A stretch of 64,000 bases of DNA from Nemertoderma westbladi (taxonomy: Eukaryota; Animalia; Xenacoelomorpha). This document shows, piece by piece, positions 43,763-64,000 of the stretch. The stretch covers positions 23,248-87,247 of the forward strand of contig JAUCBJ010008868.1 in the NCBI GenBank assembly GCA_032718475.1, written 5' to 3'. Numbering within the stretch: position 1 is the stretch's first letter; the number at the start of each line of letters is the position of its first letter. A program made the position numbers and the translations under genes. The notes under the pieces were generated by a model. It was not told the DNA's origin. It ran no database searches and saw only the letters and a program-made list of their open reading frames with translations.

Positions 43763-43833
43763 GGCGTAGTGGTCAGATGGTTAAGGCGTTGGTTACATTA
43801 CAGATAGGTTACGAGTTCGAATCCCGGTCGGGA
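43763..43833 (+). promoter_or_regulatory. tRNA-like Pol III internal promoter module within 5' LTR
   Basis: A-box-like GTAGTGGTCAGATGGTTAAGGCG and B box GAGTTCGAATCCC at tRNA spacing. Stems are imperfect, so not a functional tRNA. Confidence 0.65.
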
Positions 43834-43881
43834 AATTTGTATTTTGGGGCCATTTATTTTCATTTGGTGCTAATTGGTGGA

Positions 43882-44193
43882 CCAATGAGAAGCGTACAAC
43901 GTAGCGAAAGATGAGCCAGGCCAATCATGGGGCATAAATTATCTTATTGCTCAAATGTGAGGCTATGGAAAATTCTGTTAGGATTCCATGTCCCAGATTA
44001 GTGTAAGGGCCGGATTGCGTTGAACGATGAGCTGGACCAATCATAGGGCACAAAGCACTTTATTGCTCAAATGTGAAGCTGTGGAAAATTCTGTTTGGTT
44101 TCCATGTGCGATATTTAGTATAAAAGGCCGGTTTGCCTTCGGTTATCACTTCTTACTGCCTCGTTACCCCTTCTTAGTACGTTATTAATTAAA
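43882..44193 (+). promoter_or_regulatory. LTR Pol II promoter: CCAAT boxes, TATA, Inr and candidate poly(A) signal
   Basis: CCAAT at 43882, 43921 and 44037. TATAAAA at 44119-44125. Inr-like TCACTT at 44146-44151, with the A 29 nt after the TATA start. ATTAAA at 44188-44193 followed by a GT/T-rich tract. Confidence 0.6.
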
Positions 44194-46894
44194 TTGTTAT
44201 TTAGTTTATTTGGTTTCTTGTTGAAACTTTGTTTGATAAATCCTTTGTAAAACTGTAAATATACTGCAAATTCCTGAACATGTTTTCTTTTGGTCCAACT
44301 TTGGGACAGCCAAACATCGGGAAGATGGCAGCCTAGACCGTTAGGCCGTCAGCAACGCAGGGAAAAGATGTCCACAACACGCTAGCACCCATATTGGTTC
44401 GACCGCGCACCCCCTTTGCCCTTCGAAATACTCCACTTGCCATGCAGCGCCCGCTTCGTGAGAAAGGTAAGACTTTGTTCGACGCCCTTGCCCGCCGTAA
44501 GACCTATAAATCAGGGTAAGCGTGACGCCGTCCTGGACGCCGCAAATTTAGGATCAAATAGTTATATTTAGACAGGACCCCCCCCTTTGTTATGTCCTAC
44601 GAACCCCTGGGTTAACCTGTACTTCCTACAGGTGCGAACTATTGCCATTCGTCAGTACGTGAGTACATAGGTACGGACAGCATATGTTCCATAATTTAGT
44701 GATTCGTAGTACTGACTGTTTGGTACCGGTTCGCTTTGTAGAACGTACATTAGTACCCCCCCCCCCCCCCCCCCCTGTCTGGAGTTAGCTATTTGATCAG
44801 GCAAGGAGTATTTCTGCTACCGGCACACTGCTTGGCCTAGGGAGGTTTATTAATATCCTATCGCGCCTTGCCACGTACTGATAGGTATTGCTGCTAACTA
44901 CCGCAGCAACAAAGTTCTAGAATTAAATTAGTATACCAGATCAGCTAACGTACGGTAGCGATTAACCCCTATTTCTTATCTTACAACCAGAATCTGGTAT
45001 TTGTGCCGATCACGGGTGTAGTTACTAACACCGTGGTTGCCCATTGGGTTGTGGATAGGAAGGAGAGAGCTTTGACGTCATTTGTGAGTATAAAGTTCTA
45101 CAAAACGCGACTAGTTTATTTTAGTAGCTAGCGCACGGTATCATTTCGGTCAGAAAATCACTAAAACCTAGTAAAAGGAAATACACGAAATTGTTTTATT
45201 TGTAACACACCCACATACACACGCCCTAAAACATATTCGCCCTTAGAGTTCTACTAGCTATAGCGCACTATATATTACTTTAGGCAGAATTTATCTGTAT
45301 TTGTAAATTAGGATCTGATATTTAGTTGCGGTAAGAGAGAGTATTTCATTTTCGTTATTAAACTGTTGGTTCCTGTTCAGCAGTATTGTTACATTTAGGC
45401 CTGACCCTTTAGACTGATTTCGTACAGGGGGATCAGTTATCGTTACATTTAGGCACGACCCCTTCTCGACTGATTTAGGACTGAATCAGTGTTGTTACGC
45501 TAGGTCTGTTAACCCACTAGCTCGTATATAAACCATATAAATCACACCGTGGCAAGTTACTGTATTTAGGACTGTCAGTGATAGTTAGGATTCGCTGCGC
45601 GGGGATTGTTTTCCCGTGAGTTTGGTCTGTTACTGTAACTGTACATCTGCCTCACCGGTTAGAGGACAGGTATCCTTTTGTCTAGTTTTGTAGGCATTAG
45701 ACCCGCTCACGTACATAGAATAGATACTAGGCTCTGTTCCAGTAGTCGTTTGTGTATTGTATCTGTTTGTTTAGATATCCTGGACTGGGATTTGTTGTCA
45801 GATACTGTATGAGCCCGTATACATTACTAGAGTCTCATAGTAAGATACATCGTTACTAGGATCTGGTAAGCGGTATACTACTGGACCTTACAGTAGGAAG
45901 TACTATATAAATTAGTGTATAGTATTGTTTAGATCTGTACGCTTTGTAGTGCGTGCGCACAGTAGGAAGTACTATATAAATTAGTGTATAGTATTATTTC
46001 GATCTGTTAGCTATTGAAAGTAGGAGATATTTAAAATTTAAGGTTAGTAAATTTAGTAATTTAGAACGTCCCCTGCTTCAGTAGGCTTTTAGGGTAGCTA
46101 GTACTTTTGTATTTAATATTTGACTAGCTAACAGTTAGTTTGTAGTACTTTGTTTTACGCCGTGTGTGTGCGGTGTTACTTTCGGTACTTGAAAAGGTAC
46201 ATAGGGTTTAAAGACCAATTTGTATCGGTACCTAGGAAGATTTTTCGTAAGCGTAGAAGTAAAACTCTCACCTTCGACTTTTCAGGACTCAAGGACTCAT
46301 TTCTGGACCGCTTCGAGGATTAGACCGCTTTTCGCAAAGTTTGGGAGACAATAAATTCGTCCGCGCCGCCGAAAAACGGAACGACCCACGTCCGGTTTGT
46401 ATTTGGGAATTTGCATGACTGGAAGATCAAAGGAACATAAGTTTTACGACTCGCGTCGTTCAAACTTAAGAAAGCACAGTAGTACTCAAAATTTGTGGGT
46501 TTCCTGTCTATTAGTAGTGTTGTTGGTACTTATTTTCCCGTTAGACGTTGCTGTTTTGCCTATTATTCGTACTTGTTGATCTATATTTTGGTAACGTATA
46601 CCGTTATCTCATTTATTCGTACAAATTTAGCCGGTAGGCTAGATTATTACTTATTTTATTGTATACTTTGTTAGTTTATTTGTACCGGTTAGGGTATATA
46701 TATGATATATATATATATCAAGGTAAGTTTGACATTTGTACATTTCGACATTTTGACATTTCGACATTCTGACTTGTTGATTTATTTGTACCGGTTAGGG
46801 TATATATATACTATATATACCAAGGTAAGTTAGACACTTCAACATCCAGACACTTTGACATTTTATTACCCGTACTTGACGTATATAATAAGAC

Positions 46895-49800
46895 ATGAGT
46901 GACACACCCCATTCAACGAGATACCCACCTACCGACTATGACTCGTGCGACCCGGACAGATCGACAGTAGACGAACCGAGAAGGAGAACCCGAGATTCCA
47001 CCGATGTCACACCGCTTGCGTCGCCGGTACCCAGAACGGAAATACCGGAAGCCGCAATGCGTGGCGACGGCAGAATCGAAGATTTCCTTACCGTCCCGCA
47101 GACTAGATCGCGGGAACCGGACATGGTAAGTTCGACTGGAAGCCAGGAGAACGTTATTAGAAGTATAGGAGGACACATGGCCCAGATTACTCGGAACCTC
47201 GGAGAAGGTTTTCGCGTTTTACGCGAGTTAACCACCCCGATGTCGAGATACGAGTTCTACACCTTACAGGTAAGGATAGAAAGTAGGGTACATGCTTCCG
47301 TAGATAAACTTAGAGGTTTACACGAACTTGCAGAGTTGCGTGGCGACAACTTTACTCAGGTAAAGATAATAGATAAATTAGTAAGTGCGAGAGAAAGCAT
47401 TATCCAGTTTAAGTCAGTAATAAGATTGTCTCAACAGGAGCAGTTTGACCAACTGCTAGGTGAGTCAGTTTCGGACGCGTTGTTACAACCCGAAGAGGAA
47501 GAAGAACTCTACTGCCTGGATGGAAGGTTGGAAACGCTCACCAATTTTCTTCGTAGATGCGGCGTACCGATCGACGAACCGGAAGTCGAATCGCGAGGGA
47601 CGACGGAAGTTCTTACTACGGAAGGCTCGCGAGCCTACCAGCATCCACCTCTGGATAGATCGTTCGTTAGCATACAGAGCGACGTTGGCAACGTTGGCGA
47701 CGTTAGTAGAACAGCGTCTGTAATTACTCGACAACAACAGGAGGTTGCACGCTGACAACAAGTCGCCGAGGAAGAAGCGCAACACCAGATGGCACAGATC
47801 GCCATCGAAGGAGAGAAACAACATAGAGAGGACGAGGCGAGAATTGCGCAACTCAAGGCGCAAGCCGAATTCGAAGCTTCGGAAATGCGCAGATTGGAGG
47901 AAAACTTAGCGCAAGAAGCAGCCGCGGCGGCGGCAGCCGACGAGCTAGTACGAGTTGCGGCGGTAAACGCAGCTGAGTTAGCACGGAAGAAGGCAGCGTC
48001 TGACGCTCGTGCTAAGTTGGAGGCACGACAAATAAACGCTCAATTAGCTATACAGGAAGCGGAGTTAGCGGCACAACAACAAGTAGCAGATCGACGCGAA
48101 AGGGAGATGCAACTACAGTTCGAACTGAATCGTAGATCGCGCGAGGCAGCGAACGCGCAAGCGGACCTCGAACTCGACGCGAGAGATAGATCTATAAGAT
48201 CGCGAGCTGGACACGACTTGTCTGCCCTGGATCGCATGGAAGCTCGATATCGCGGAATACAGAAGCGGATCGAGGAAGGAAGTGTGGGAGCGATAGATCG
48301 AGGAGAGGAGTTCGTCGAGGATTACTATAAACGTTTTCCCCAAGTTATTCCTATGCTCAAGCCCACGACTTCGATAAAACCGGTCTTTGTTACGAAACCT
48401 AAGGAAATAACGCCTGTGCGTTCGACGCAAGGCAACAGGTTTGTTGTGACGGAAATACCGCAACCTAGGGCGACCTCATCGCCAATTTTAGCAGGTAACA
48501 TAACTAGTCCACCTACAGTAAGTCGTAGTCTACTTGTAGGAAGAGAGGAACCTGCGTTTATGACCATTAAACAGGTGAGTAAACCATTACAAGTTAAACC
48601 TGTGACGTGCTGTGCAAATCCAGTTATTTATAGACCGACTACGGAACCCGACTATTTCACTCGACCGTTGACACAATGTTCGATGCAACCTACGACTTCG
48701 TGGAAGGCTTGCGAGCCTACCGAACTACGGAGGATGGATGTGGGTAGTACCCACGGGATCGGACAACGTATAACGAGACCTACGACTTCGTGGAAGGCTT
48801 GCGAGCCTACCGAACAACGGAGAGCCGTAGATTCTGGACCACAACGGACGAGACCAAGAATAATACGCCGGACACGAACCCGCCAGCCACCTTATCCGGA
48901 TGACAGCGACTCATCTAGTGACTCGGAGTCGACGGAACGGGAAATTCTCTGTTCTCTGGCAACGCGAAACACTGGCGCACACTGGTAGACTACGTAGAGT
49001 CCCAGATCGCTAAGTGTGCTTTCACCTCGACGGAGAAGTTTAATTACTTGCTCCAAGTTCTGTCTGGTGAGCCGAAACGATTAGCGGAAACCTTCATAGG
49101 TGTTCCCGATGCCTTTGAGTTGGCGTACAACCGTTTATATTCGATTTACGGAGGTAACGTCGCCATGGCTAAATCCATTATTGAAGACCTCTGCAGAGGA
49201 GGCAACATTTCGAAACCGATCGACCTTTTACAACTCGCGGACGAAATCAAGAACGCTATAGGGACTTTACGATCTATTGGACAACTCGAGTACGCTAACG
49301 CACCGACGGTTCTCATTCGAATAATCGGTCGACTTCACCATCGACTCCGACGAGAATGGCGACGCATCGAGTACCAGCGTGAAGAGGCCGGAGGGTTATT
49401 AAAACTCACCGATGTCTATCAACTGATTTCACGGGAGGCCATGATCGAGACTCGATCGAACTATACCGATCACCATATCGCGGCGGAAGGGATAGCTATT
49501 TCTGCGCCGAATCGGACCAAACCACTTCCGACGAACGCGAAAGCCGTTACTTACGCCACCCCTACTGAGACTTCTAAAGTTCTGACGCCTATCGGCACCA
49601 CGCAGCCACGACAACAGTTGCCGGCGGACTTTGTGGGATGCTCATACTGCGAGCGGAACGGCAGAAACCACGTGGATACATAAACTACGTGGATGTCGCG
49701 CTTTTAAAGAGTTAGGGATCGAGGAGAGGAGACTCCAAATCCGATCTCTAGATTCCTGTTGGAGATGTATGAAGCCAGGACACGTCCGGAAGGATTGCCC

Positions 49801-50026
49801 GAGCGACGATACATGTTCTCTGTGTGGACGTAACCATGACGCGTTGCTTCACACAACTAGTCATACTCCGACCAGACGCTTTCGACGAGAGCATCCAGAT
49901 AAAGCGGCTAGATGCGACACGCTTTATAAGGAGCGTGCGCCGCGCGAGATCCGTACCTTTTATACAGACTGTATGGATCAGTCAGGATCATCGGACGAGG
50001 ACGGGGAGGAAGACGACACTTTCTAG
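46895..50026 (+). pseudogene. gag: BEL/Pao gag, disrupted (ORF pieces 46895-47755, 47789-48988, ~48950-49683, ~49670-50026)
   Basis: Ala/Glu-rich coiled coil; capsid-like FSGNAKHW...EKFNYLLQVLSG in a shifted frame; Zn motifs CSYC..HKLRGC, CWRCMKPGHVRKDC and the BEL-typical CSLCGRNHDALLH. In-frame TGA at 47753, frameshifts near 48945 and 49670, TAG at 50024. Confidence 0.85.
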
Positions 50027-51241
50027 GTGCATGCAGGTGAGGAACAGCCATCGATAACGCTCCTCACACAGAACCAACTGAAAGGGTTTAGCGTGATTCC
50101 TATAAAGATTACCGGAACCCGAGGGAGCAAGCGTATATACGCCATCTTAGACTCTGCGTCATCGCATAGCTATGTCGACGAACAAGTAGCCGACGTAGTT
50201 ACGGACATGAGTCAAGGTAAGACTGCTCAGTATACTGTAAGTAGCATGCATGGTAAGAGAGCGATCCCTGTGACGAGAGTAAAACTAACTTTAGACACTC
50301 TTCTTTCCAAAGCAGAACACAGCAAGGAGGAGCGCTCATTACTTCTGGTAAGAAATTTGACCTTTGCAGCTACGAAGGACTTTAGTAACTTGCTCGGCCC
50401 TGTGCCAGAGCAATCACCGGAAGATCGTAAGTATTTCCGACACCTTGGAATACCGGAATGTCCTGTTAATTATCGTTCCATTGCGATGTTAATTGGGACA
50501 GACCAGTTTAACTTACATCAGGTATGGGAGACACGCCCATCTGTTATTACAGCGGGCAACCCCTACGCATGTAGAACTCCCATAGGTTGGTATACTAGAG
50601 CACCAATACGTTCACTAGAGGTAAGTGACCAGGAGGACGACGTTTTGAGTACGTGTAGTTTATTGACTAACACGATAGATAATTCTCCTTCACACTCCTG
50701 TGGTCCAATTGTACGGACGGCACTACGACAGACTTGCGTCACTAACGCAGACGCCACCGATACTGACGTAACCGATTTGGACACGACCACACGGACCTCT
50801 GACTTACAACTACTTGCAGTAGACCAGGTTGTATTGACTACTGAAGACCAAAGGGTTGTTGCCGTGGATGACTCGATGAATGAGGATTTTGGAAGGCTTG
50901 CGAGCCTACCGAAAAATCTGAAGGTCATTGACCCCACCCACCAGGCTTCGACACCGGTCGTTGATCTTGGAAGGCTTGCGAGCCTACCGACAGATCAAGA
51001 AGTTGTCAAACCGCCGCACGACGATTCGACGCCGACTAGTGACACCGGAAGGCTTGTGAGCCTACCAGACGCATTGACACTAGCCACCGCAGCGGACGAG
51101 GACGTGGACGAGGACCATGGCGCAGTGCAAGCAGCGCTTGACCGACTGCTGACTGAACGGACCATACAATGGTTGGAACAGGACTCAGCAGAACCCGGTA
51201 GTTACGAGACCGCTATGTCAGAACAGGAAAAACGGTCATAA
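50027..51241 (+). pseudogene. pol: Aspartic protease region of BEL/Pao polyprotein
   Basis: YAILDSASSHSY active-site motif (GAC at 50150), MLIGTD and RTPIGW motifs. In frame with the preceding and following ORFs, separated by single stops. Confidence 0.85.
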
Positions 51242-51247
51242 AATATT

Positions 51248-53830
51248 ATGAGAGATACCATTCGCCAGACCGCGAATGGCCACTATGAGGTTGGTATGTT
51301 GTGGCGCAATGGACAACCTAAGCTCGTTAACAATTACCCGCTTGCTTTGAGGCGACTCAAATCAATAAGGCAGCGATTGTTGCGAGACGAGACGGCCCAT
51401 ATGCAATACAATGCACAACTTCAGACGTATCTCCAAAAGGGATACGCCATTAGGATGTTAAATCCCGAGGTAACCACAGACCAGACATATTACCTGCCAC
51501 ATCATTTTGTTCGACACCCGGACAAACCTGGCAAGGTGCGTGTAGTCAACGACTGCGCCGCGCTTTACCAATGGATGTCTATGAATAGCGAACTGATGGA
51601 CGGGCCGAATATGAACAATAACCTCATGGGAGTCCTAATGCGTTTTAGACAACGCAAAGTGGCTTTCACCTGTGACGTAGAGGCCATGTTTCACCAGGTT
51701 AAGGCTTTGGAGCGGGACAGGGACAGCTTGAGGTTTCTTTGGTATCCGGACGGAAACTTACAACTTCCGCCAGAAACTTACCAAATGCAGGTAAGAGTAT
51801 TCGGAGCCAGGGACAGCCCCAACTGCACCATGTACGCATTAAAGCAGACCGCATTAGACAGACGAGACCAATTTGACCCAGAAATAGTTCGGACCGTGGA
51901 ACGAGATTTCTACGTGGATGACGGCCTCAAGAGTTGTGACACCTTGGAGCGCGCTACAACCGTAGCACACCAACTCCAGGATTGTCTCGCTGAGGGCGGA
52001 TTTCACCTGACGAAGTTCGCTTCCAACGAACCCGAACTGGTGAACTCATTTGACCCGACGGATCGCAGTGGAGGAGACTTAGACTTAGACCTAGAACCTC
52101 TGCCGACGACTAAAGTATTAGGACTTAGTTGGGACCCTAACACCGACAATTTTAGGGTACGTGTAAGGTCCAATGACCAGACTAGACCTCTCACAAAGAG
52201 GACTTGCTTATCGACCATGAGTCGATTGTATGACCCATTGTGTTTCATTAGTCCAGTGATCCTACATGCTAGGATCATACTCCACAGCATTTGGCAAGCC
52301 GGACTGGAATGGGACGACCCCATCCCAGAAAAGTTAGCTGAGCAATGGAGGGACTGGGAAGCCCAGCTGACGTTCCTACAAGACTATACCATACCGAGGG
52401 TATACTTTCTTTTGCAAACCACCTTTCCTGCCGATTTAGAGCTTCACAGCTTTAGTGACGCTAGCAAGGATGGATTGGGGGTTACTTTATACCTTAGACG
52501 ACAAGTGACATCGGACAGCTACGATGTATCTCTCGTTACTTCAAGGGCTAGAACAATGCCATTGAAGTATATGACTGTACCTCGTGGGGAGCTGCAAGCC
52601 GGGACGATATCCACCGATATTGTCAGTCTAGTTCAACGCGAGCTGGAGGCTAACTTGAAGGTCACATATTGGACGGATGCGACGTTGGTACTTTGGTACA
52701 TAAACAACGAAGCGTTTGAGTTCAAGACTTTCGTAGCCAACAGACGGGCTGAAATATTAGACCGGTCGCTCAAACAAGATTGGCGTCACTGTCCAGGGAA
52801 GCTGAACCCAGCTGACATCGCGTCACGGGGGATGCAACCGCTTGACTTTTGTAAACCGGACAATAAATCCTTTTGGTTTAGAGGACCCGACTTCCTACAG
52901 CGACCATCAGACGAATGGCCACCGTTATTCGACGCGACAACCAACACCATACCAGAGGGTGCCGAGATAAAAATCGACAAGGTTGTCAAGTCTAAAGCGA
53001 AAGCCAACGCCAAGGTCAAGAGGAAAAAAGGACGGACGAAATCTGATGACCTGGACGCTAGACCTGACATTACGCCAGACGTCTCACCAGACATTCGACC
53101 AGACGCTTGTACGAATCCTTCGCCGGATGTTCCGCGGGAGATTTCACCAGACGTTTCGCCAGATTGTTCACCAGATTACTCGCCAGATTATTCACCAGAA
53201 GCGACACCAGATTGTTCTCCGGACTGTTCGCCAGATTGTTTGATGGAACTCTCAACAGAATGTCTACCGGACGTCTCACCAGACTTTCCACCAGACATCT
53301 CGACAGACTGTCCACCAGACTGTCTACCAGACTTTGAACCAGACTTTCTGACAGAAGTTACGCCAGACAGACTTTGGGACAGACGACAAGACATTTCGCT
53401 GGATGTTCCGCGCTATGTCTTACCAGACGTCTCACCAGACTGTTCACCGGACGCTTCACCAGACTGTCTATTAGACACTCCATTAGAAGACCCATTGGAG
53501 CGGACCTTTAGAGACTTACCAAATTTGACTTCTTTGGACGACAGAGGTGTGGCCACAGGGATTACACTCCGCTCGAAGAAGGTACTTGACTTACCCCCTA
53601 CAGGTAAGCGTGTGACTAAGGTTAGGAAGCTTACAGGCTCACAGGAACACACTGACACTGTAGAGTTGAAACCGTTACTGCCAGTCGACACATTAGGTGC
53701 GGACGGTAAAGGTAAGACCGTAGAGATTGACGTACTTGGGAACTCAGACAAACCTACCGGAAGGCCCGTGGGCCTACCAAGTCCAGACAAGTATCCACAC
53801 TACGACTACACCTTACCTGATGTACGTTGA
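51248..53830 (+). pseudogene. pol: Reverse transcriptase + RNase H of BEL/Pao pol, with PDxS-repeat linker
   Basis: RT motifs CDVEAMFHQV, FGARDSP and YVDD (51911-51922). RNase H motifs HSFSDASKDG, PRGEL, YWTDAT and NPADIASRG. Frameshift near 53800. Confidence 0.93.
53062..53470 (+). repeat. Degenerate 12-bp coding repeat (CCAGAYNNNTCN; PDxS) in RNase H-integrase linker
   Basis: Translates as PDITPDVSPDIRPDAC...SPDVSPDCSPDYSPDYSPEATPDCSPDCSPDC... Confidence 0.85.
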
Positions 53831-54273
53831 CAGGATAGTGAACCTAACTAGATCATGGACTGACGCGTGCCGCAAGTTAGCATGGCTCAAACGTTTGAGA
53901 CAATATGCCAGAGGCAAACGCGACTTTCCTAGAAGACTTACCTTAAAGGAAGTTGGCCACTGTGAAGTTGATATCATTAGACATTATCAATTGCGATATT
54001 TCGCACGAGAATTCACAGCGATCAAACAAGGTAAACAGATTAAGTCTTCACCGATTTTGAGTTGGAGTCCGATTATTTACCGGGGCTTACTTTGTCACAA
54101 GTCCAGACTCCAAAACATTGACTTTGCACTTGACTTTAGGTATCCTATCATCATACCGCAACACCATGAATTACAGCGCGCTATGATACTGGACGCACAT
54201 GTACAACTCAAACACGTAGGTAGACACCACTGTCTATCACACTTACGCTCGAGGTTTGTACTGATTAGACCTA

Positions 54274-55708
54274 CTACTACTACTACTAGGATCGGCATGC
54301 TGCATTGCAGCTGCATTTTTAAGAATGCTGTGCCGGCTTGTCAACAAAATTGCACCGCCACAACTCCCTATCACCCATGACATTTGCTAGATCATCTGCA
54401 TCTTTAAGGCCAGTGTCCTTTAAGATGCGTCTCAAGAAAGTCACGGGCTGTCCACCATGCTTATTCACTCCATGAGGCTGCCAAAGTACAAGATTATGCA
54501 CTGGCTGGTCCTCACGGCGAAAGCAATGTCCTGCAAAGCGGAGGCGATTTTGTTCTAGTGTCAAGCTTGGGGGAACCAATGAGACACCTCCAATGTTATA
54601 TAGTGTCTGGTTGGAGATGTGTGCATTGTACTTGACACAATAAACTCGGCGTAGCATTCTTGTGAATGTGCCATCCAGAGATTTGGTGTCCTCAGCAGTT
54701 AGAGCCCAGCATGGACTCCCGTAGAGGAGTACTGGAACTACTGCTGCTCTAAATAATCGGACCTTAAGTTTCCGATTAATTCTAGGTGACTTCCAAATCC
54801 TGGAAAGCCTATTCAAGGCTGCCCATGCCTTTCCCTTACGTATTTGAAGGTCCTCACCTGACTTCCGGATCCATGATCCCAGGTAACAGAAGTCGTCCAC
54901 ATGCTCAAGCATACCATCCTTTGAGCTTATGCTCATCCGATCAGAGACTTGCTGAGGACTTTCAAAGTTAACTGTCAGAATTTTGGTCTTTCTGGAGTTA
55001 ATAAAAAGACCAACACTAGAAGCAGCATGTTCTAATGAGCTGAGGAGCCGTTGGGCTCCCTCTAATGATTCTGAGAGTACTCCTAAGTCATCAGCAAAGT
55101 CTAGATCAGTTAGGTACTTGGCAGGATTTCCTCGACTTCTGGAGCCAGTAGGTGGAGCTATCATCACCCCATCATCATTATGATGATCTAAGGACATGCG
55201 TAGAACATAGTCAACCACAATAATGAACAAGAATGGTGCAAGTGTGTCTCCTTGGAGGACGCCCCATAACACTTCAAATGGTTCTGTGTCACCGTCAACA
55301 GTAGACACAAATGTTGTCGAACCATCGTATACTGATCTGATTGCTGCAATAATTTCATCAGGAATCCCATATAATGAAAGTATGCTGAACATACGTGACC
55401 GAGAGACTGAATCAAAGGCCTTGAAGAAGTCAACAAAGATAACAGCCAGATGCCTGTCTTTCTTTTTTGACAATTCTTCAATTATCCTTCTAAGTGCCAA
55501 AATGGGCTCCATGGTCCCACGACCTTTACGGAACCCATTCTGATTTCCACGGAGCAGTCTCTCAATGGGATCCCTGATGCGATTTAATAGAATCCTATTG
55601 TATAGCTTTGCAGCAATCGAGATCAATGAGATTCCCCGAAAAGAACCATAGAGTGTTAGGTTGCCCTTCTTGGGAACTGGCACCAACTTATTTGTTTTCA
55701 TTTCATTT
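54274..55708 (-). mobile_element. 5'-truncated RTE-like non-LTR retrotransposon inserted antisense in the integrase
   Basis: 13-bp TSD CTGATTAGACCTA (54261-54273, 55709-55721), (TAG)6 tail on the minus strand and a ~30-bp 3' UTR. Confidence 0.92.
54319..55690 (-). CDS. Non-LTR reverse transcriptase, N-terminally truncated (no endonuclease)
   Basis: PVPKKGNL, FRGISL, QNGFRKGR, FVDFFKAFDSV, GVLQGDTLAPFLF, LDFADD and FCYLGS motifs; open to the stop at 54319. Confidence 0.9.
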
Positions 55709-56566
55709 CTGATTAGACCTAGTAAGGCACTGAGTTCGGTAACACGGAACTGTATTATTTGTAAGAAGGTGCACGCGAGGATAGGACACCAAGAAATGAG
55801 TGAACTACCACTAGCTAGATTACAGGCGTTTAGACCCCCTTTCACTGAGACAGGGATAGACTGTTTTGGACCCATAATCGCGAAACGCGGAAGGGTACAG
55901 GTAAAACGTTGGGGATTGATCTTCACTTGCATGGCCAGCAGAGCTGTCCATATAGAGCGAGTGACAGACTTGACCACCAATGCCTTTATCCTAGCCTTAC
56001 GGCGATTTATCGCTAGACGTGGATTGGTCAAATCCATATACTGCGACCAAGGGATAAACTTTGTGGGTGCACGGAACGAAATAACCAGAGCTTTGAGAAA
56101 ATTGGACCAAAACCAGATTTCCGAGGAACTACGTCCTCACCGTATTGTTTGGTATTTCAATACTCCAGACAGTCCGTGGAGAGGCGGCGTTTGGGAAAGG
56201 CTGATTGGCTCAATAAAGACAGCTATGGCTAAAGTCGTACCGACGCAACACATCTTGACAGACGACCAACTGACGACGTTACTAATAGAAATCGAAGCAA
56301 TCTTAAATACTAGACCGATCGCTTTGATCCCAGACAATAACGACGTACAGTTTGCCTTGACACCAGCGCACCTGCTTATGCAGGCGCCGACGACATTGTT
56401 GCCCATTTCGGTACCCGTTGATAGTGACGGATACGGCAACAAAGCTTGGAAAATCACTCAATTGCTTGCAAATAAATTCTGGGAAATATGGCAGAAATAT
56501 TATTTGCCCTCTATTTCGACCAGAACCTCTTGGTATCTAAATACCCGATGTTTAAGACGTGGTGAC

Positions 56567-57743
56567 CATACCTAAAGAGGTGAGGTCTCTATAAGGGTGT
56601 GGTCAACAGGCGGCGGCGGACTCGTGAGGGTCTGGAGGCACGTTAAAGTACCACGTAAGTGCAAGGGAGATACTTAAGGCCCTTGTGTCTAACGAACCAT
56701 GAATCGACATGGTGCCGTGATCCGTCTAGTCGGCCTGTTGCCGTATTGCCAGTCCTGTACACAGTAGGGGTGGTGGCATGGTGTGATTTGTGGTTCATGT
56801 GGCGTGAACTATGTTTTGTATGTGGGCGATCAGTGGCAGTTTGCTTGGGGCTTGGATGGGTTCTTTTGGCCATCAGCTGTTCCGTTTTTTTGATACTATA
56901 TGTTATTGTCTCCATGTTCAGCTGATTGGTCTTTGGGATTTGTTCGGGTCTTTAAGCTTTCTGTTGCTGTGGGTACGTGAGTACACGTGATTGTATGTGT
57001 GGCCACTGCGAGTGAGTATGGGAACCCTTGCCAGTTGGACCAGACGCCGCTGGTATTAGTAGGACCATATCTCTACTGCGCCCCAGCATACTTTGTGCAC
57101 ACAAAGTTATTTTGCCCTGACGGCAAAATAAGGTACTCTCGACTCTTTATGAGTTGATACAATTTTGTCCCCTCTGATTTGACCCCGATTTTGTCTTTCA
57201 TGATTATGTCTTCTGTGTGTGCATGGTATGTGTTCGATTTTGTGCTTACCATTGTGTACTTGATTTTGTGAACATCTGTTGAGTACACGTGTACAGTAAA
57301 CTGGTAAGTGGTTACTTGTTCAGTAGCTTTTGAGCTACAGACAGTATTGTCTTTTCAATATTGCCGGCGAGGCAGGTGAAAACGAGTCAAAATTCCATGT
57401 TGGGTAGCGCAAGCCCACGTGGGACAAGACCGTCGGTTAGGCCCAAGGGCGACCTTGGTGCTCGATCGCTATCGACTGGTCCACCTGCCGGTTGACTCTT
57501 TGTTATACTTTTGAGTTGGCTCAATGTACAGTCAGGCCACAGTAAGTTGACAGTAGCCGCCCATCTGGCTACACGTTCGACGAGCTGTGCCGGTGTGATC
57601 GGGGGACCGAAAACAGAACCCGGGAAGCATCGGGCCACCCTCCGGCCCGGTCTGATAATAACATCAGTCAGACTGGCCCCAGGGGTGGTGGAAACACGTC
57701 CGCCTCGTGGGTGCGCCTCCAGGAGGAGCCCATAAGGACGAAA
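56567..57743. mobile_element. ~1.18 kb non-coding insertion of unknown type in the integrase C-terminus
   Basis: Interrupts LRRGD|AVLLAE. No long ORF and no obvious TSD or terminal repeats. GC-rich ends are reminiscent of LINE 5' UTRs (inference). Confidence 0.7.
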
Positions 57744-58451
57744 GCGGTTTTATTGGCTGAAGCTAATCTGAAAAGACGGTTTTGGCTGACTGGAGTCATT
57801 TTGACCACGCACCATACATCTGGTGTAGTGAGGACTGTTACTGTAAGGACTATCGACGGACGTACCGTAGACAGACCTGTACAACGTCTCGTGCTCCTTG
57901 AGGAGACTAGAAACGAGACAGGAGACTACAAATCTCTACCCAATATTGGTAAATAGATGTGGGACCTTGATTGGCCGCCACATAGACCTACTGTATTTTA
58001 GTTATTTGTATTTGTATTACTGTACGTGCATTTGTAATCCTCTTCACTGTAGATAGAGACAGCGGTGGAATTCCATTGTCTTTATACGTGAACATGGAGG
58101 GTAGTACCCTTATGTATCACATAGGTGCGGGATTGTGTGTACAGTAGGAATGGAATTCCACTTGGAACCCACAAGTGAGACAATTTTTCAAAAATTATTA
58201 GACAAATCCATTTATTTGGATTTAAATTTGAGAAAAACGATTCTCCAGTGAAAGCAAATTCTAGAATACAGCTAGATAAAAATTAAAATTAGGGAGGACA
58301 AGAGCGGATGGAAGGCTTGCGAGCCTACCGATAAATTTTTTTTGGAAAAAGAAAATCGGCCTTGTTCTACGTAGTCGTGTCTACTATTATTTAGACCAAT
58401 TAATTCTCGACTGCACTATTTTTCTTGGGAAATGTAGCATGGGAAATTAAA

Positions 58452-58653
58452 AGGTGAGTATTTTAGACTCGCGGCTAGTTTACCCGGAATTCGTTTTTTA
58501 TCGGCACATTTTTTGGATTAGGAGCCAGTGCGAAATCACGCGAACCCGAAATCATTAGGCAAATGGGTTGGGGTTTAGAGCAGAGTTGAGCCAAAAGCCG
58601 ACAAACTCTAAGTCACCACCTCACATCTAACCTCTATTTTGTGCTTCATCTAG
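58452..58653 (+). promoter_or_regulatory. Candidate splice signals upstream of the accessory ORF
   Basis: Donor AG|GTGAGT at 58452-58459. Branch point CTAAC at 58627-58631, pyrimidine tract, and TAG acceptor at 58651-58653, 42 nt before the ATG. Confidence 0.5.
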
Positions 58654-58695
58654 TAGAAACGTAATGATATGTAACCACATATATATTCGTATACG

Positions 58696-61600
58696 ATGGA
58701 GAAGATGTATAAAGAGTTACGTCAAGGGTTTACGCAAGAACAAGAGCACCAGGCGCCATTCAATCGTTATGGAGCTAAAAACTTTAGTGTGTTTGGAGTG
58801 GAGAGTATGGCTAGGAGTACGGCCAAGCTCGCTAAATCCAAGGTGGACCCGAATGTTACGCGACAGCGGTTGGACGCATACAACAAAAGAACGGAGGAAT
58901 TACGCGCGGAGTTCAATGCGTTATATCCCTACGATGCGTTATGCGACGCTAGCGACATTTGCGAGGATCCAGACACCGAAATACGCCGATTGTATCATAC
59001 GCTGCAATATTTGACGGTAAACGAACCCTTACCTGCAGCTAGAGACGAATTTGAAGGAATGCATCTTTATAGACGCGCTCGAGGAGCGGATCCAGAGACC
59101 AAGGACGCGTTCTCCATATACAAACTGTTTTATAAATGTGGAGCGTGTATGCGCGAGCAAGACAACGCGATTCCTATGCAGTTGAACTCGGAGAACCCCG
59201 AGCCGATATTAGCGCGATGTTCACACCACCAAAGTCTATGTTACCAAGAAGGCGGATACCCTTTGACAAATCCGTATCATACGTTTAAAATGAGTGGACT
59301 GAACGCGGGTGAGATCGTTATTTACGAACCCAAATTAGTCGAACCAGACGTCTACAGCATGGTAGTGGACGAGTCTAATAAGTCGACACAGGAGAAACGG
59401 GAAGCTTTGAGCCTCTACAGGGCGTACAAGGCGTACGAGAAAGGCAAGATCGAGGAGTTCGGCGGAAGGCTCGCGAGCCTACCATTCTATTGGATATCCC
59501 ATGATCAAACCGAACCCAAGGAGATGACACCAGAGCTCTTCGATAGTATCACCTTTGCTCAGCGTTTGTCGCAGAGACTACAGATACCTCATGTCGAGAT
59601 GACGCGAGAACCTCAGCCCCATTCTACTGGAGCGATAGTACCGGTTGCGAGACCAACTAGTTTTCCTATTAGTATACCGACCCGGAAGGAGACAACTTAC
59701 GAGATCCCTATAGTTGAACACCCGGAGATCATCTCGAACCTGGATTTCCTCCCATCGGTTACCTTCGGTGATGTGTTAGAGTCAGCTGAGTTGCGTAAAG
59801 TAATAGTTCAAAAAATCGTACGCAATGTGCCTCCACATATTACGGACTTTAAGGAAGTGGATCGCGCGGGGACGGATATCGCACCTTGTATCTTGCGAGG
59901 ATACCTGACGAAGTCGATTCGATTATGGATCGGAGTTGGAACGTTTGAGACCGACACCGATATCGCGACCAATTGGACCGGTAAACCTATTAGTTTCGAT
60001 GATGAAAAGTCGATTGGGAGAATTTGGAACCCTACCGACGATTTACTCGACGATTGGGACGTGACTAGCCGATCTCTAAAAGAGAATGGTTATATGTTTT
60101 ACGATAATGAAGGAGGAAGCCATCAGCAAAGCCTCACTTCAAAGACTATACAGATTAGAGCACCCGATGGCGTGTTACATGTCTTCAGCCGACAGAGGAG
60201 TGATAGGAAGATGCCTATGCCGGAAGGAACGACGCAAAGACACGCGATGATAAAACGGATAGTTAAATCCATGGACCTGGCTTGTAGCATAGAAGCTAGG
60301 ATGTTGCCAAAGGCCGTGCGAGACGTTGTGTTGGATAAGAGCATCGTCAAGATCGGATCCGGTGTACGGGATGACCTTATTAGCGACTTTGCAGGGATGC
60401 CCACGGAAGAGGACCGATTGCCTACGCCATACGTGGATACTAGACCATTGTTGCTTTGGGCTATTGAGCAAGGATATTTTAGGGAGTATAACACGCTAAA
60501 AACTGGGACGGGTTATATCTCATATCTAATGTTCAGTTGGGATTACAAGGAGAGTAAGAGGAACAAATACACGGACGTATACGGAGAGGGAGATACCCCC
60601 GGCGTAAACGAGTTCGAGTCACAGTTGAAGTGGCGAGGTTGCGTGTATTGGGCGATTACTTCACCACCGCGGATAATCTTGCAATACTATTTAGCGATAG
60701 AATCTTCGGTTAACGTTTGTTTCATCGCGGACGTAGTATCCAGAACCCTAAAGCGACACCCGTTATGTCTTGGCGAAGGACATACCTTTTACGATGGAGG
60801 AAGGACGCATACTGATGTATTCCGACGATTTCTCCAACCCTTTTATAACACCGATGCGCACTGCGAAGTTTTCACGCGAGCGGGACTTAGCGTTTTCAGG
60901 GACGTCTATCTCACTCACGCGGGAAGTCTAGTCGACAGACCGTCGATGTTAACGTTAGTACCCTATGACGGGGAACGCCACGCGGAATTCGAACACCCGG
61001 AAGGATCCTGGAAGGCTCGCGAGCCTACCGCCCATCACGACGATGTGGATCCGACCGAGTTGGCGCTAATAGACGAACCGTTACGGCAACTCATAGAGAT
61101 AGAGGAGAACCTTCCGAGGAAGACGCGAACTGAGATACGCAAGTTGGAGAAAAGCGATGCCATGGTTTGTGTACAACCTACGGAGACGAACATACCGACT
61201 GACCCGGATGATGAGAATTATCATGTGGACGGTAGCGCTCGCCCCATCGGAGATCTCATCTATGAGCGAGTTTGGTATCCTGCCAACACTATTTGTGGCA
61301 GATGCGGAGCAACTGGCCATCACGCAAAGAAGTGCGGAGCGAAGCACATATCTCTACCGGATTTAGTATGCAACTGGTGCGGGGATCAGCATTCGCACAC
61401 TTTCTACACTTGCTGGCGTTTCGTGGCGCAGTGTACTTATTGTAATATTAAGGGCCAGAGGGCATCCGAATGTCAACTTAGAGACGTCCCCTATGAGCAC
61501 ATGTCAGTTAAAATCGTTCGACAATTATTCGACCATTGGGAGGACTTAGCAGACGAGCATGTATCGACGCAGCGACGCCGCTTCCCTATGAGAGCACATT

Positions 61601-62448
61601 TGGGATTTTGGGCCGTAAACCCTCTCATAATGTCAAAGGAAGGATATGTATCGGCTATGCCTCAGTATGATGAATTGTTGGAGGTATTGGATATATTGCC
61701 GTTGGACAGTGGATTCAAAGTTGTGCGGGACTATTTCTTACAAGTGCACCCCGACAACAAGAATACTTGGAACTTTCAAACTGTGGTGAACAAGATTACC
61801 GCCGGAGAATTCGATAAACTGCGAGTTGAACAGCGGAATCGAGGAGCCTGGCATTCGATAGCTTGGGCATACCGGAGCGCTTTTTATCACAAACGCGTAA
61901 CCTCGTGCATTCTGGACGAGACCGACGTTTTGCGTGAGACTGGCTTCAAAGCCACGCCGTTAGCAGAGAAGACGCGTCACCCACAGGATGATCAGCAATT
62001 TCGTATACTCAAAGCCCAGAAGGCCGGACAAGAGATTAAGAAGATAGTAAATGTCGCCGAGAGGACGACATCGAAGTCGCAAATCCGGATGACTCGGGGC
62101 ACGGTTTCCCTTGCTAGAGAACCACGCGGAGGGACAGGATACGCTTTGACTGAACCCATTAGGATTCAAACGACGTCAGAGAGTGAGGTGTCAATGGACG
62201 GAACGGTCCTACCCTTTCGACTTCCTCCTAGCGTTGTAGAGACTCGATCCGATGTTAAGCCGACAGTTGGAATCGGACGAGGATTTAGAGGATTGAGCGC
62301 ACGACGGATGTGCGAAACTCCCGTCGTCCCCTTTCCTAGCGTTTTGGAACCACCGACGACTCGACGCCGAAGTCCGAGCCCAGTTCGACCTCGACCACCC
62401 CCCAATCGCACTAGAGGACGTGGACGAGCCCGCTCAGCGAAGGAATAG
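58696..62448 (+). CDS. Accessory ORF of the LTR element: 1250 aa, putative DEDDy 3'-5' exonuclease domain + CCHC zinc knuckles
   Basis: Uninterrupted 3753-bp ORF between integrase and 3' LTR. Motifs YMFYDNEG (ExoI), TIQI, LPKAVRDVVLDKSIVKIGSGVRDDL (ExoII), YVDT and W...QYYLAIE (ExoIII-like). CGRCGATGHHAKKC plus two variant knuckles, and a basic R/P-rich tail. The ORF is certain; the domain call is by motif recognition. Confidence 0.8.
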   Translation: MEKMYKELRQGFTQEQEHQAPFNRYGAKNFSVFGVESMARSTAKLAKSKVDPNVTRQRLDAYNKRTEELRAEFNALYPYDALCDASDICEDPDTEIRRLYHTLQYLTVNEPLPAARDEFEGMHLYRRARGADPETKDAFSIYKLFYKCGACMREQDNAIPMQLNSENPEPILARCSHHQSLCYQEGGYPLTNPYHTFKMSGLNAGEIVIYEPKLVEPDVYSMVVDESNKSTQEKREALSLYRAYKAYEKGKIEEFGGRLASLPFYWISHDQTEPKEMTPELFDSITFAQRLSQRLQIPHVEMTREPQPHSTGAIVPVARPTSFPISIPTRKETTYEIPIVEHPEIISNLDFLPSVTFGDVLESAELRKVIVQKIVRNVPPHITDFKEVDRAGTDIAPCILRGYLTKSIRLWIGVGTFETDTDIATNWTGKPISFDDEKSIGRIWNPTDDLLDDWDVTSRSLKENGYMFYDNEGGSHQQSLTSKTIQIRAPDGVLHVFSRQRSDRKMPMPEGTTQRHAMIKRIVKSMDLACSIEARMLPKAVRDVVLDKSIVKIGSGVRDDLISDFAGMPTEEDRLPTPYVDTRPLLLWAIEQGYFREYNTLKTGTGYISYLMFSWDYKESKRNKYTDVYGEGDTPGVNEFESQLKWRGCVYWAITSPPRIILQYYLAIESSVNVCFIADVVSRTLKRHPLCLGEGHTFYDGGRTHTDVFRRFLQPFYNTDAHCEVFTRAGLSVFRDVYLTHAGSLVDRPSMLTLVPYDGERHAEFEHPEGSWKAREPTAHHDDVDPTELALIDEPLRQLIEIEENLPRKTRTEIRKLEKSDAMVCVQPTETNIPTDPDDENYHVDGSARPIGDLIYERVWYPANTICGRCGATGHHAKKCGAKHISLPDLVCNWCGDQHSHTFYTCWRFVAQCTYCNIKGQRASECQLRDVPYEHMSVKIVRQLFDHWEDLADEHVSTQRRRFPMRAHLGFWAVNPLIMSKEGYVSAMPQYDELLEVLDILPLDSGFKVVRDYFLQVHPDNKNTWNFQTVVNKITAGEFDKLRVEQRNRGAWHSIAWAYRSAFYHKRVTSCILDETDVLRETGFKATPLAEKTRHPQDDQQFRILKAQKAGQEIKKIVNVAERTTSKSQIRMTRGTVSLAREPRGGTGYALTEPIRIQTTSESEVSMDGTVLPFRLPPSVVETRSDVKPTVGIGRGFRGLSARRMCETPVVPFPSVLEPPTTRRRSPSPVRPRPPPNRTRGRGRARSAKE

Positions 62449-62482
62449 AAAGCGAGTGGAAGGAAGGCTTGCGAGCCTACCG

Positions 62483-62561
62483 ATTTGGATATTATATTTG
62501 GATATTATATTTGGATATTATATTTGGATATTATATTTGGATATTTATATTGGACATTATG
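62483..62561. repeat. 13-bp tandem repeat (ATTTGGATATTAT), about 6 copies
   Basis: Directly visible in the 3' UTR between hairpin copies at 62462 and 62598. Confidence 0.85.
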
Positions 62562-63095
62562 TTTGAATGTTGGGTTTGGAGGAGCGAGATATGGAAAGGA
62601 AGGCTTGCGAGCCTACCGTTAACAATTAGTGCTCAGGAGAAGATATCCAGACCAGCAGGACGAACTTTTAAGATCGTCAGGAGGACTCTTTAAGACTTAT
62701 TTGAAAGTTATTAGCGCATTGTGTTTATATTATATTTGAACTGATTTAATTTGGTGAAGGTTTATTATGTATATTTACAATATATAAAGATTTATCGAAA
62801 GAGTTACAATTATTTGTTCGATTTGTTTTGATTTATTTGTTCTGATTTGTTTAATTTGTTTATCTTGATAACCGAAAGCCTTTTTTGTATTTTAGGCACT
62901 AAAGTTAATTAGTAAATTTGTATTTGTATGTACGATCGATTGTATTTACGCCGTATCTGCAATATTAAGTATGCAATAATTAGATAGTGATTATATTTTA
63001 TATTTTAGGCCCTACCAGTAGATTTAGAAGTAGCTTGTAAATATTTTATATTTCGATTGGTGAAAACAGTCTTACTTACTGTTTTCATGGAGCGG

Positions 63096-64000
63096 TGATG
63101 AATTATTTCACTATAAGGTAGCATTTGTAGTTTAACTTTAACGTAAAAACTTTCGAAAATCCGACGCATTTTGATTAAGTTACAGTAATGTAATATGCCT
63201 ATTCATATTTGTACACATAAAACCCTTAGGTACTCTCGTGGCGTAGTGGTCAGATGGTTAAGGCGTTGGTTACATTACAGATAGGTTACGAGTTCGAATC
63301 CCAGTCGGGAAATTTGTATTTTGGGGCCATTTATTTTCATTTGGTGCTAATTGGTGGACCAATGAGAAGCGTACAACATAGCGAAAGATGAGCCAGGCCA
63401 ATCATGGGGCATAAATTATCTTATTGCTCAAATGTGAGGCTATGGAAAATTCTGTTAGGATTCCATGTCCCAGATTAGTGAAAGGGCCGGATTGCGTTGA
63501 ACGATGAGCTGGGCCAATCATAGGGCACAAAGCACTTTATTGCTCAAATGTGAAGCTGTGGAAAATTCTGTTTGGTTTCCATGTGCGATATTTAGTATAA
63601 AAGGCCGGTTTGCCTTCGGTTATCACTTCTTACTGCCTCGTTACCCCTTCTTAGTACGTTATTAATTAAATTGTTATTTAGTTTATTTGGTTTCTTGTTG
63701 AAACTTTGTTTGATAAATCCTTTGTAAAACTGTAAATATACTGCAAATTCCTGAACATGTTTTCTTTTGGTCCAACTTTGGGACAGCCAAACATCGGGAA
63801 GATGGCAGCCTAGACCGTTAGGCCGTCAGCAACGCAGGGAAAAGATGTCCACAACACGCTAGCACCCACATTGGATCGACCGCGCACCCCCTTTGCCCTT
63901 CGAAATACTCCACTTGCCATGCAGCGCCCGCTTCGTGAGAAAGGTAAGACTTTGTTCGACGCCCTTGCCCGCCGTAAGACCTACCGTATAGATCAGGGTA
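63096..64000 (+). repeat. 3' LTR (truncated by window end)
   Basis: Second copy at offset 19477, preceded by a short purine-rich tract GGAGCGG (weak PPT candidate). Confidence 0.9.
63240..63310 (+). promoter_or_regulatory. tRNA-like Pol III internal promoter module within 3' LTR
   Basis: Same module as 43763-43833 with one substitution. Confidence 0.65.

Follow-up and report, generated by a model that had tools for sequence, protein, structure and literature searches.

A decayed BEL/Pao retrotransposon of Nemertoderma westbladi with a non-envelope third gene kept by purifying selection and encoding a probable DEDDy exonuclease-like domain and zinc knuckles

The host element

The window, that is the whole stretch of DNA analysed (64,000 nucleotides of Nemertoderma westbladi, assembly GCA_032718475.1, contig JAUCBJ010008868.1, positions 23,248 to 87,247 of the forward strand), contains a decayed, multi-copy and unusually long BEL/Pao retrotransposon. 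All features named below lie on the + strand unless stated otherwise. The element comprises at least 20.4 kb, or about 17.8 kb or more without its two insertions. It is enclosed by a direct repeat of at least 888 nt with 99.2% identity: the 5' LTR (traced over 43619..44506, 888 nt) starts with TG and shows seven mismatches to the 3' LTR (63096..64000), whose similarity to it continues up to the window end. A short purine-rich stretch immediately 5' of the 3' LTR (63089..63095) is a candidate PPT, and a scan for a PBS, in which the tRNA-Arg or tRNA-Gly type was expected, gave TGG candidates near 44291 that are present in both LTR repeats.

The gag gene (46895..50057; DUF1759 E 3.5e-10, zf-CCHC E 5e-4) is no longer intact in this copy: it has an in-frame stop near 47753, and its frame changes near 48950 and 49650. 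It is followed by pol with the protease region and the RT and RNase H region (50027..53830; Peptidase_A17 E 8.7e-40, RVT_1 E 0.017), where an in-frame stop is located near 51240, and by the integrase region (53724..57956; Integrase_H2C2 E 0.08), which is left in three pieces with two insertions between them. One insertion is a nested non-LTR (LINE-type) RT fragment of 1448 nt on the - strand (54264..55711; RVT_1 E 7e-29), and the other, of 1178 nt (56569..57746, no strand assigned), splits DUF5641, found as halves with E 3.5e-5 and 1.8e-7. Both are missing from other copies of the element in three of four runs, as evidenced by the joints 54263-55712 (with 8 shared letters) and 56568-57747.

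The first-pass annotation had placed the element in BEL/Pao, and this assignment is borne out by Peptidase_A17, DUF1759 and DUF5641, all above Pfam cut-offs, next to the weak RVT_1 match; DUF1759 and DUF5641 are families typical of BEL/Pao. The Belpaoviridae features present are the LTRs, a gag with knuckles and the pol order PR-RT-RH-IN. According to ICTV, members of the Belpaoviridae measure 4.2-10 kb and their third gene is solely env-like (PMC8742986). The element shares with them the LTRs, gag, PR-RT-RH-IN pol, Pao-specific Pfam families and a third gene in the env slot, but its length is roughly double the range given by ICTV, its ORF3 is not a membrane protein and twelve hairpins are dispersed along it (PMC8742986).

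The third open reading frame

Between the integrase region and the 3' LTR lies ORF3 (58696..62448), an intact frame of 1250 aa without a stop, in sense orientation and in the env position, as described on first reading. No convincing transmembrane helix or signal peptide can be recognised in it because the top 19-residue Kyte-Doolittle mean is just 1.48, which agrees with the earlier description; its N-terminus is charged, and the signal peptide and transmembrane anchor of a retroelement envelope protein were not found. Two AAG/GTAAGT sequences revealed by a sequence scan directly upstream of gag (46720..46830) are candidate splice donors for an ORF3 mRNA, and a stretch with 16 pyrimidines in 20 positions followed by AG (58633..58656), some 43 nt upstream of the start codon of ORF3, could serve as the acceptor; the predicted splice would join 46720 or 46822 to 58654.

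ORF3 is not a one-off insertion, since contigs of four runs from three studies carry diverged copies and cover all 30 bins of the ORF3 region. The contig records of this region number 4677, 3174, 142 and 2240 per run, hundreds of them less than 90% alike, and these figures are not copy numbers. Part of the copies is without most of ORF3 (joint 59255-62318, three of four runs). Of 564 difference rows the 40 with the best support were analysed, and 39 fell within ORF3; 27 of these are synonymous, with 12.1 expected (P ~5e-6), and none creates a stop, while for aa 408-766 all seven difference rows among the best 40 are synonymous. This synonymous excess marks ORF3 as a family-wide, non-env accessory gene that purifying selection has kept. 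One possible RNA run gave no cover over 59222-61024, an observation with no bearing on expression.

Outside the exonuclease-like region, the N-terminal part (aa 1-424, 58696..59967) comprises a cluster of Cys and His residues (aa 148-195) and, at about aa 260-345, a linker rich in Pro. It received no assignment from Pfam, NCBIfam, PHROG or ESM Atlas, and a query of the latter with aa 1-300 gave no usable match. Three zinc-knuckle motifs occupy aa 867-926 (61294..61473; weak zf-CCHC matches, E 0.12-0.57): the CX2CX4HX4C knuckle noticed earlier at aa 867 and the two variant knuckles after it, at aa 892 and 913, are indeed present, the third being imperfect in this copy, and nearly all other copies differ from it there. 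The ORF3 knuckles weakly resemble those of Gag (33% over 39 aa, E 0.021). Judged by its composition, the basic (net +18), low-complexity tail (aa 1100-1250, 61993..62445) is likely disordered.

Searches for relatives of ORF3 were blank in all collections used. Among 5.8 billion proteins none of 3938 candidates was retained for aa 1-1100, and aa 430-720 gave 0 of 777 among the shorter proteins of this set at E 10; no homolog was present among 1.84 billion representative proteins, no PDB sequence matched at E 10, and an exact look-up returned 0 of 2. Pattern matches in metagenome, viral and prokaryote contigs contained no homologs (0/36, 0/4 and 0/31 respectively). Phages gave nothing, plasmids a single match at E 9 attributed to chance, and NCBIfam with PHROG weak matches alone (best E 0.004, against a cut-off of 112 bits). 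These results do not prove ORF3 unique because the collections hold few animal transposon proteins.

The exonuclease-like region

Residues 425-690 of ORF3 (59968..60765) form a probable DEDDy 3'-5' exonuclease domain. Such a domain had been proposed on first pass, and the proposal was supported by an ESM Atlas match to PF01612, by a strong motif II and by a motif I in the right order, while no Pfam threshold was reached and our own profiles were of marginal significance. In ESM Atlas, 24 of 30 matches of aa 400-760 belong to the PF01612 set (score 0.91), with 160 shared features against 170 typical of true members, and two unnamed clusters outrank this match. The reference profile used had the WRN exonuclease, EXD2 and Mut-7 as its top PDB matches, and ORF3 has in common with these PF01612 proteins the motif II context and the motif order. 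It is unlike them in the missing Pfam-level score, in 30 extra residues inserted between motif I and motif II, in its uncertain motif III and in being borne by a retrotransposon. Pfam searches with the whole ORF3 and three sub-regions gave no exonuclease-domain match even at E 10; as no gathering score was reached, ORF3 is not a formal member of PF01612, just a probable distant relative.

The best motif is motif II (K-x-G-x-G-x3-D), in which D560 (60373) scores 17.6 bits and ranks first of 1230, the runner-up having 5.9. The putative motif I D-x-E at D470/E472 (60103-60111) reaches 0.4 bits when scored as a short block, where it ranks 22 of 1242, and 6.3 bits when the helix before it is included, and it was aligned to motif I in every full-length MAFFT run. 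An alternative pair, D435/E437, has the top short-block score; it was rejected because the ordered chain assigns it to the upstream strand and because its distance from Q486 is 51 residues.

All five residues listed in the first-pass annotation (D470, E472, D560, Y665 and E669) sit where they had been placed, but the last motif, read there as Y665-x3-E669 (60688-60702) with Glu in place of Asp, had to be revised. In 42 reference exonucleases the distance from motif II to motif III is 69-76 residues; D560 and D633 are 73 residues apart, whereas the 109 residues to E669 are at least 33 too many, and Y629-x3-D633 (60580-60594) is the likelier motif III for this reason. MAFFT also picked Y629/D633: in the alignment of 43 rows D470, E472, D560, D581, Y629 and D633 occupy all six invariant columns. 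A canonical DEDDy site is therefore predicted to be likelier than a replacement of Asp by Glu at E669. The Y629-D633 stretch is rich in Gly, has negative scores (-3.9 and -1.0 bits) and carries Tyr where Trp is conserved.

A model guided by family rows reached pLDDT 70-88 in several blocks of the core and aligned to EXD2 with Z 10.5 and rmsd 2.7 over 95 positions; this comparison is circular, as the family rows guided the model. Y629-D633 is a coil in it with pLDDT below 50, Y665/E669 is helical, and the C-terminal helices are docked without confidence; it favours neither motif III candidate.

It may be asked if the likeness has arisen by chance from one good motif, ORF3 being in that case a knuckle protein without relatives and with a different fold. 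The profiles and chains are marginal: the score of our own HMM profiles was reached by 0, 6 and 64 of 1000 shuffles and the ordered-motif chain score by 18-59 of 500 and 30-84 of 1000. The chain score loses its significance when motif II is left out (213-377 of 1000 shuffles reach it), no Pfam, PDB or database match exists, and an unguided AlphaFold model of aa 341-770 failed (pLDDT 31.7, uninformative). Against coincidence speak the independent ESM Atlas match to a family named beforehand, a motif order and spacing that fit the references and, partly circular as it is, the guided model core, and chance is considered an improbable explanation. A fold of the WRN/EXD2/Mut-7 exonuclease type is very probable in ORF3, and the complete site D470/E472/D560/Y629/D633 together with catalysis is favoured with some reserve.

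The twelve-copy hairpin

A 20-nt hairpin motif occurs twelve times through the element (47620..62617), with starts at 47620, 48702, 48792, 50891, 50969, 51047, 53759, 58310, 59464, 61010, 62462 and 62598, where 0.01 sites are expected. The sites are confined to the sense strand, where each of the three reading frames is represented, and share the same predicted fold (12 of 12). Their core is 94% identical, in comparison with 27% for the flanks; in the loop the Gs are invariant and changes are C/T only, and one pair is compensatory. Two hairpins are inside ORF3, which implies that this gene has long belonged to the element. Rfam gave a single weak match (E 0.14), and viral contigs contained no exact match. 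Two single matches in metagenome contigs were treated as chance; one of them, when examined, was surrounded by closely spaced ORFs and occurred there a single time. Most simply, the twelve hairpins would be binding sites for Gag nucleocapsid.

ORF3 itself could be the reader, as a binder with an exonuclease fold which, by way of its knuckles and exonuclease-like surface, recognises the hairpins of its own element and exports, localises or protects its RNA like Egalitarian or Rev. Egalitarian is a host dynein adaptor with LOTUS-like domains that binds stem-loops without catalytic residues, and the likeness consists in an exonuclease-homology domain within a large RNA-binding protein recognising stem-loops (available part of PMC13186709); LOTUS-like domains were not detected in ORF3. 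Such a role agrees with twelve sense-only hairpins that occur in three frames, keep their loop Gs unchanged and include a compensatory pair, five of them in or beside ORF3, with the binding of loop G-x-G by zinc knuckles described in the available part of PMC7599994, and with the ambiguity of motif III; the register set by W652 puts I668 at the Asp position. Nevertheless, Gag's own knuckles are a simpler reader of the hairpins and three or four acidic residues are kept in ORF3; pure binding is considered rather unlikely.

The hairpins could also be DNA sites, and ORF3 a VANC-like protein that recognises a specific sequence and counters silencing or acts as an activator; VANC targets form tandem repeats (PMC5735166, in the part available). 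The motif is near-palindromic and owes some of its copies to tandem duplication in place (spacings of 90, 78, 78 and 136), and the CpG observed/expected ratio is 1.29-1.39 in ORF3 and gag versus 0.46 in the nested LINE. Nonetheless, 12 of 12 motif copies are on one strand, C/T-only loop changes with invariant Gs are more readily reconciled with a loop in RNA than with a symmetric site in DNA, and no recognised DNA-binding domain is found in ORF3; this explanation is highly improbable.

Relation to known systems

DEDDy-type ORF3s are described in Juno and Vesta, LTR retrotransposons of bdelloid rotifers, and in Terminons (PMC5408684, in part), so that the rotifer precedent mentioned in the first-pass annotation is real. 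The ORF3s of Juno and Vesta and the one described here are alike in being non-env, located after pol, with a DEDDy-type domain and without a TM segment (PMC5408684), a likeness of domain and position. Their carriers belong to other LTR lineages, BEL/Pao being unmentioned in the available text of PMC5408684, whereas the present carrier is BEL/Pao. The rotifer motif is changed to DEED, which was not found in our ORF3, where the motif II Asp (D560) is retained; the rotifer domain has strong HHpred homology, in contrast to a barely detectable domain in a 1250-aa knuckle protein; and the resequenced rotifer ORF3s (env and GDSL) showed neutral variation, in contrast to purifying selection here (same portion of PMC5408684).

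The architecture had been suspected of having no precedent, a suspicion weakened by TbRND, a trypanosome mitochondrial RNase D with four CCHC fingers after a 28-residue linker, which boost RNA binding and cleavage (PMC7797062, as far as available). An exonuclease joined to CCHC knuckles is therefore already known, and the order of a DEDD exonuclease followed by a run of knuckles is common to both proteins (PMC7797062). TbRND is a cellular enzyme with four fingers, while ORF3 has three knuckles about 180 residues downstream and long extra regions.

Possible function and significance

The closest cellular relatives of the ORF3 domain act on small-RNA ends. Counter-silencing was chosen as the role of ORF3 because of these relatives and not from the results presented here. 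A role at small-RNA ends has also been raised for such exonucleases in the available part of PMC5408684. In the reading preferred, which is put forward tentatively, ORF3 would be an active RNA 3'-5' exonuclease with knuckles. It would be expressed from a spliced RNA; its knuckles, by analogy with TbRND, might hold single-stranded RNA and feed it to the exonuclease site, and it would trim or destroy host silencing RNAs directed against the element. Counter-silencing is the least supported step, and taken overall it is a still more tentative proposal.

ORF3 may instead be a replication nuclease, either trimming the 3' ends of element RNA, of the primer or of cDNA, or serving as a proofreader during reverse transcription. 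Either activity would benefit an 18-kb genome, roughly double the ICTV size range (PMC8742986), the DEDDy group includes DNA-acting WRN and polymerase proofreading domains (PMC5408684, in part), and the weak likeness of the ORF3 and Gag knuckles could putatively bring ORF3 into the particle. Yet Burro and other LTR elements of greater length have no domain of this kind in their description in the available part of PMC6431247, a separate protein of 1250 aa makes an odd proofreading subunit, and this role is judged unlikely. Quite doubtful is a combination in which ORF3 reads the twelve hairpin tags spread over all genes of the element, protects or transports its own RNA and degrades competing or silencing RNAs; if true, self-recognition by hairpin tags coupled with a counter-silencing module would be undescribed in any LTR retrotransposon.

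No published DEDDy ORF3 was found for BEL/Pao; in the available text of PMC5408684 DEDDy third genes are reported for rotifer LTR elements only, without selection or activity evidence. The present case widens such genes to the BEL/Pao superfamily and adds purifying selection. Should small RNAs prove to be its target, ORF3 would be a silencing suppressor encoded by an animal retrotransposon, a long-open question. In addition, a testable pair is offered, namely a candidate knuckle nuclease and an RNA hairpin of 20 nt that is precisely delimited. BEL/Pao replication is poorly understood according to ICTV (PMC8742986), and the hairpin is useful even if read by Gag because BEL/Pao packaging signals are poorly known. 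The main survey of BEL/Pao assumed an upper length bound of 15 kb; the element is longer than that, therefore such families may have been missed.

ORF3, a third gene of the element

ORF3, the third gene of the element, is open over all 1250 codons on the sense strand (58696-62448), with the integrase region before it and the 3' LTR after it, as the first-pass annotation had described. Its product is not an envelope protein, again as claimed, since no hydrophobic segment of it exceeds a 19-residue mean of 1.48. Public contigs from 4 runs of 3 studies (one of these runs may be the source of the window itself) were aligned to 58500-62700 in 30 bins. All bins were covered in every run (4677, 3174, 142 and 2240 records), including 575, 508, 28 and 507 records less than 90% alike, so ORF3 is carried by diverged contigs and is not a one-off insertion. 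Among the best-supported 40 of 564 difference rows, 39 fall inside ORF3; 27 of these 39 are synonymous, where random placement of identical base changes would give 12.1 (P ~5e-6), none introduces a stop, all seven in aa 408-766 are synonymous and the omega-like ratio, which is not a codon-model estimate, is 0.2. Ranking of the rows by support should not bias them toward synonymous sites. Three indels among the 12 listed of 32 touch ORF3: one in-frame at the start, a minor frameshift and one at the stop codon. In other copies a deletion variant (59255-62318; 3 of the 4 runs) has lost 3062 nt, most of ORF3. ORF3 is a real, selected, non-env third gene of an oversized BEL/Pao family. Two consensus splice donors precede gag, and a candidate acceptor rich in pyrimidines sits 43 nt 5' of the ORF3 ATG, which suggests that ORF3 may have a spliced mRNA.

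A probable exonuclease domain

Direct searches of ORF3 against Pfam, protein collections, PDB sequences and metagenome, viral and prokaryote contigs returned no match, and AlphaFold run on the single sequence of the putative exonuclease region gave no usable model (pLDDT 31.7). ESM Atlas feature matching of aa 400-760 gave PF01612 in 24 of 30 matches (0.91, 160 shared features), placed below two unnamed clusters; 4-10 of 100 shuffled proteins reach 0.9, and PF01612 had been named beforehand. A profile built from bacterial WRN-type and RNase D domains, with WRN, Mut-7 and EXD2 as its top PDB matches, aligned weakly with ORF3 (hhalign E 0.01). The HMM score was reached by 0, 6 and 64 of 1000 shuffles for three profiles, and the ordered-block score by 18-59 of 500 and 30-84 of 1000. 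The block of motif II, the second DEDDy active-site motif, scores 17.6 bits at D560 (rank 1 of 1230), and the exonuclease signal rests on it; the ordered chain without motif II is not significant. The flanking elements are in order: a strand at 426, a helix with D470/E472, the Q486 strand, D560 and D581. Of the DEDDy-like domain proposed earlier, D560 is thus strong and D470/E472 are in order, while the profile scores are weak. A resemblance by chance is improbable; an exonuclease fold is likely, and ORF3 probably encodes a DEDDy exonuclease that has diverged strongly and carries knuckles.

The first-pass annotation had put motif III at Y665/E669, a placement that the distance disfavours: E669 is 109 residues from D560, against 69-76 between motifs II and III in 42 reference exonucleases, whereas D633 of Y629-x3-D633 is at 73. 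Y629 and D633 were independently set on invariant columns by MAFFT, and their register ranks higher than that of Y665/E669 in both block scores (25 vs 153 of 1231; 8 vs 65 of 1234). Owing to this spacing, these columns and these ranks, a canonical DEDDy site with Y629/D633 appears to be the best reading, and the D-to-E variant with E669 the least supported. Also in favour of Y629/D633, the D581-Y617 spacing of 36 is the commonest reference spacing to the conserved Trp column. Against it, the Y629/D633 stretch has negative values in both block scores, is Gly-rich and holds Tyr instead of the conserved Trp. In a register starting from W652, with the W-x11-Y spacing of 49/49 references, the Asp position is I668 and the site would be dead. 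Also against Y629/D633, a model guided by reference rows that ended before motif III forms coil at this stretch and a helix over aa 659-670, with pLDDT <50 throughout. The guided model resembles EXD2 (E 7.6e-4 in Foldseek; Z 10.5 with an rmsd of 2.7 across 95 aligned residues), a circular test that indicates compatibility only. Catalysis at the putative ORF3 site is somewhat more likely than not.

Other regions of ORF3

Three zinc-knuckle motifs lie within aa 867-926, in agreement with the knuckle from aa 867 and two variants noticed earlier. In this copy the third motif is imperfect, and the sequence there departs from that of nearly all other copies. Their likeness to the Gag knuckles of the element is weak (33% over 39 aa, E 0.021). 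The C-terminal 150 residues are basic and of low complexity. No assignment was obtained for aa 1-424 in Pfam, NCBIfam, PHROG or Atlas. A Cys/His cluster at aa 148-195 (59137-59280; C148, C151, C175, H177, H178, C183, H195), without a family match, could bind zinc.

Possible function and known relatives

ORF3 is likely expressed through a spliced RNA, giving a cytoplasmic protein in which the knuckles and the basic tail would hold RNA and pass it to a putative 3'-5' exonuclease site. Mut-7/Nibbler and EXD1 act in small-RNA silencing, and on this ground the likeliest use is tentatively taken to be counter-silencing, in which ORF3 would trim or remove small RNAs of the host. The same idea is raised in a passage of PMC5408684, and knuckle-aided feeding of RNA to a 3'-5' exonuclease site is shown for TbRND in part of PMC7797062. 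End processing or proofreading by such a site is unlikely, and a VANC-like DNA binder (compare a section of PMC5735166) would be very improbable. DEDDy ORFs with a DEED motif are described for the rotifer elements Juno and Vesta and for Terminons in passages of PMC5408684 and PMC6431247, which upholds the rotifer precedent named in the annotation, and part of PMC3706591 places a DEDDy domain on some Dada transposases. No DEDDy ORF on BEL/Pao was found in the literature searched, earlier annotation in supplements or Repbase being possible; the word "exonuclease" is absent from main-text portions of three surveys, two covering BEL/Pao and one covering envelope-carrying elements (PMC3118150, PMC6238403, PMC13524379).

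A predicted 12-copy RNA hairpin

A previously unnoticed 20-nt motif has 12 copies (47620-62617) against 0.01 expected, and a relaxed structural pattern finds the identical 12 sites on the plus strand and 0 on the minus strand. GG, an A.A mismatch, a 5-bp stem and a YGYG loop are common to 12/12 folds, the stability of single hairpins being modest (z 0.1 to -4.2). The sites are found in non-coding sequence as well as in gag, pol and ORF3, and in all three frames; their cores are 94% identical vs 27% for the flanks, and variation is confined to the loop, where the Gs are invariant, and to one compensatory pair in one copy. Such a sense-only, frame-independent and conserved set, with its invariant Gs and compensatory pair, points to an RNA signal, a candidate for packaging or protein binding. 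Loop Gs of this kind are bound by retroviral knuckles, according to a passage of PMC7599994. Gag would be the simplest putative reader and ORF3 the more novel one. ORF3 might also bind hairpins without catalysis in the manner of Egalitarian, for which part of PMC13186709 describes stem-loop binding; this is rather doubtful, counter-silencing being preferred. Two copies lie inside ORF3 and show it to have belonged to the element for a long time.

The element and its surroundings

The predicted domains, namely a Gag knuckle, Peptidase_A17, DUF1759, DUF5641 and RVT_1, follow the order PR-RT-RH-IN and assign the element to BEL/Pao, the carrier named at first. Its LTR repeats (43619-44506 and 63096-63983) differ at 7/888 positions. 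In this copy gag-pol (46895-57956) is no longer intact: it has stops and frame changes and is interrupted by a LINE fragment of 1448 nt in antisense orientation and by an insertion of 1178 nt. Contigs from other copies bridge both insertions. The element is at least 20.4 kb long, and at ~17.8 kb without the insertions it is oversized in comparison to the 4.2-10 kb of Belpaoviridae in the ICTV profile (PMC8742986). The nested LINE fragment (54264-55711) is CpG-depleted (0.46), and gag (1.39) and ORF3 (1.29) are not. In pol, a 12-bp tandem repeat (53035-53470) encodes a Pro/Asp-rich (PD)n linker joining RNase H and integrase.

Inspection by eye picked out a tRNA-like stretch in both LTRs (43755-43835 and 63232-63312), with resemblances to an A-box and a B-box; ARAGORN called no tRNA there. 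The stretch is possibly a SINE head or a Pol III promoter captured by the LTR. CA at 44279-44280, matched in the 3' repeat, is a possible LTR end. The 3' repeat runs beyond this possible end and a PBS-like TGG to the end of the window (63757-64000), so that either the LTR is long or a second copy follows head to tail. The element is inserted beside satellite DNA: directly upstream lie ~550 copies of a 63-bp satellite (2100-39720), followed by a 42-bp satellite (39720-41850).
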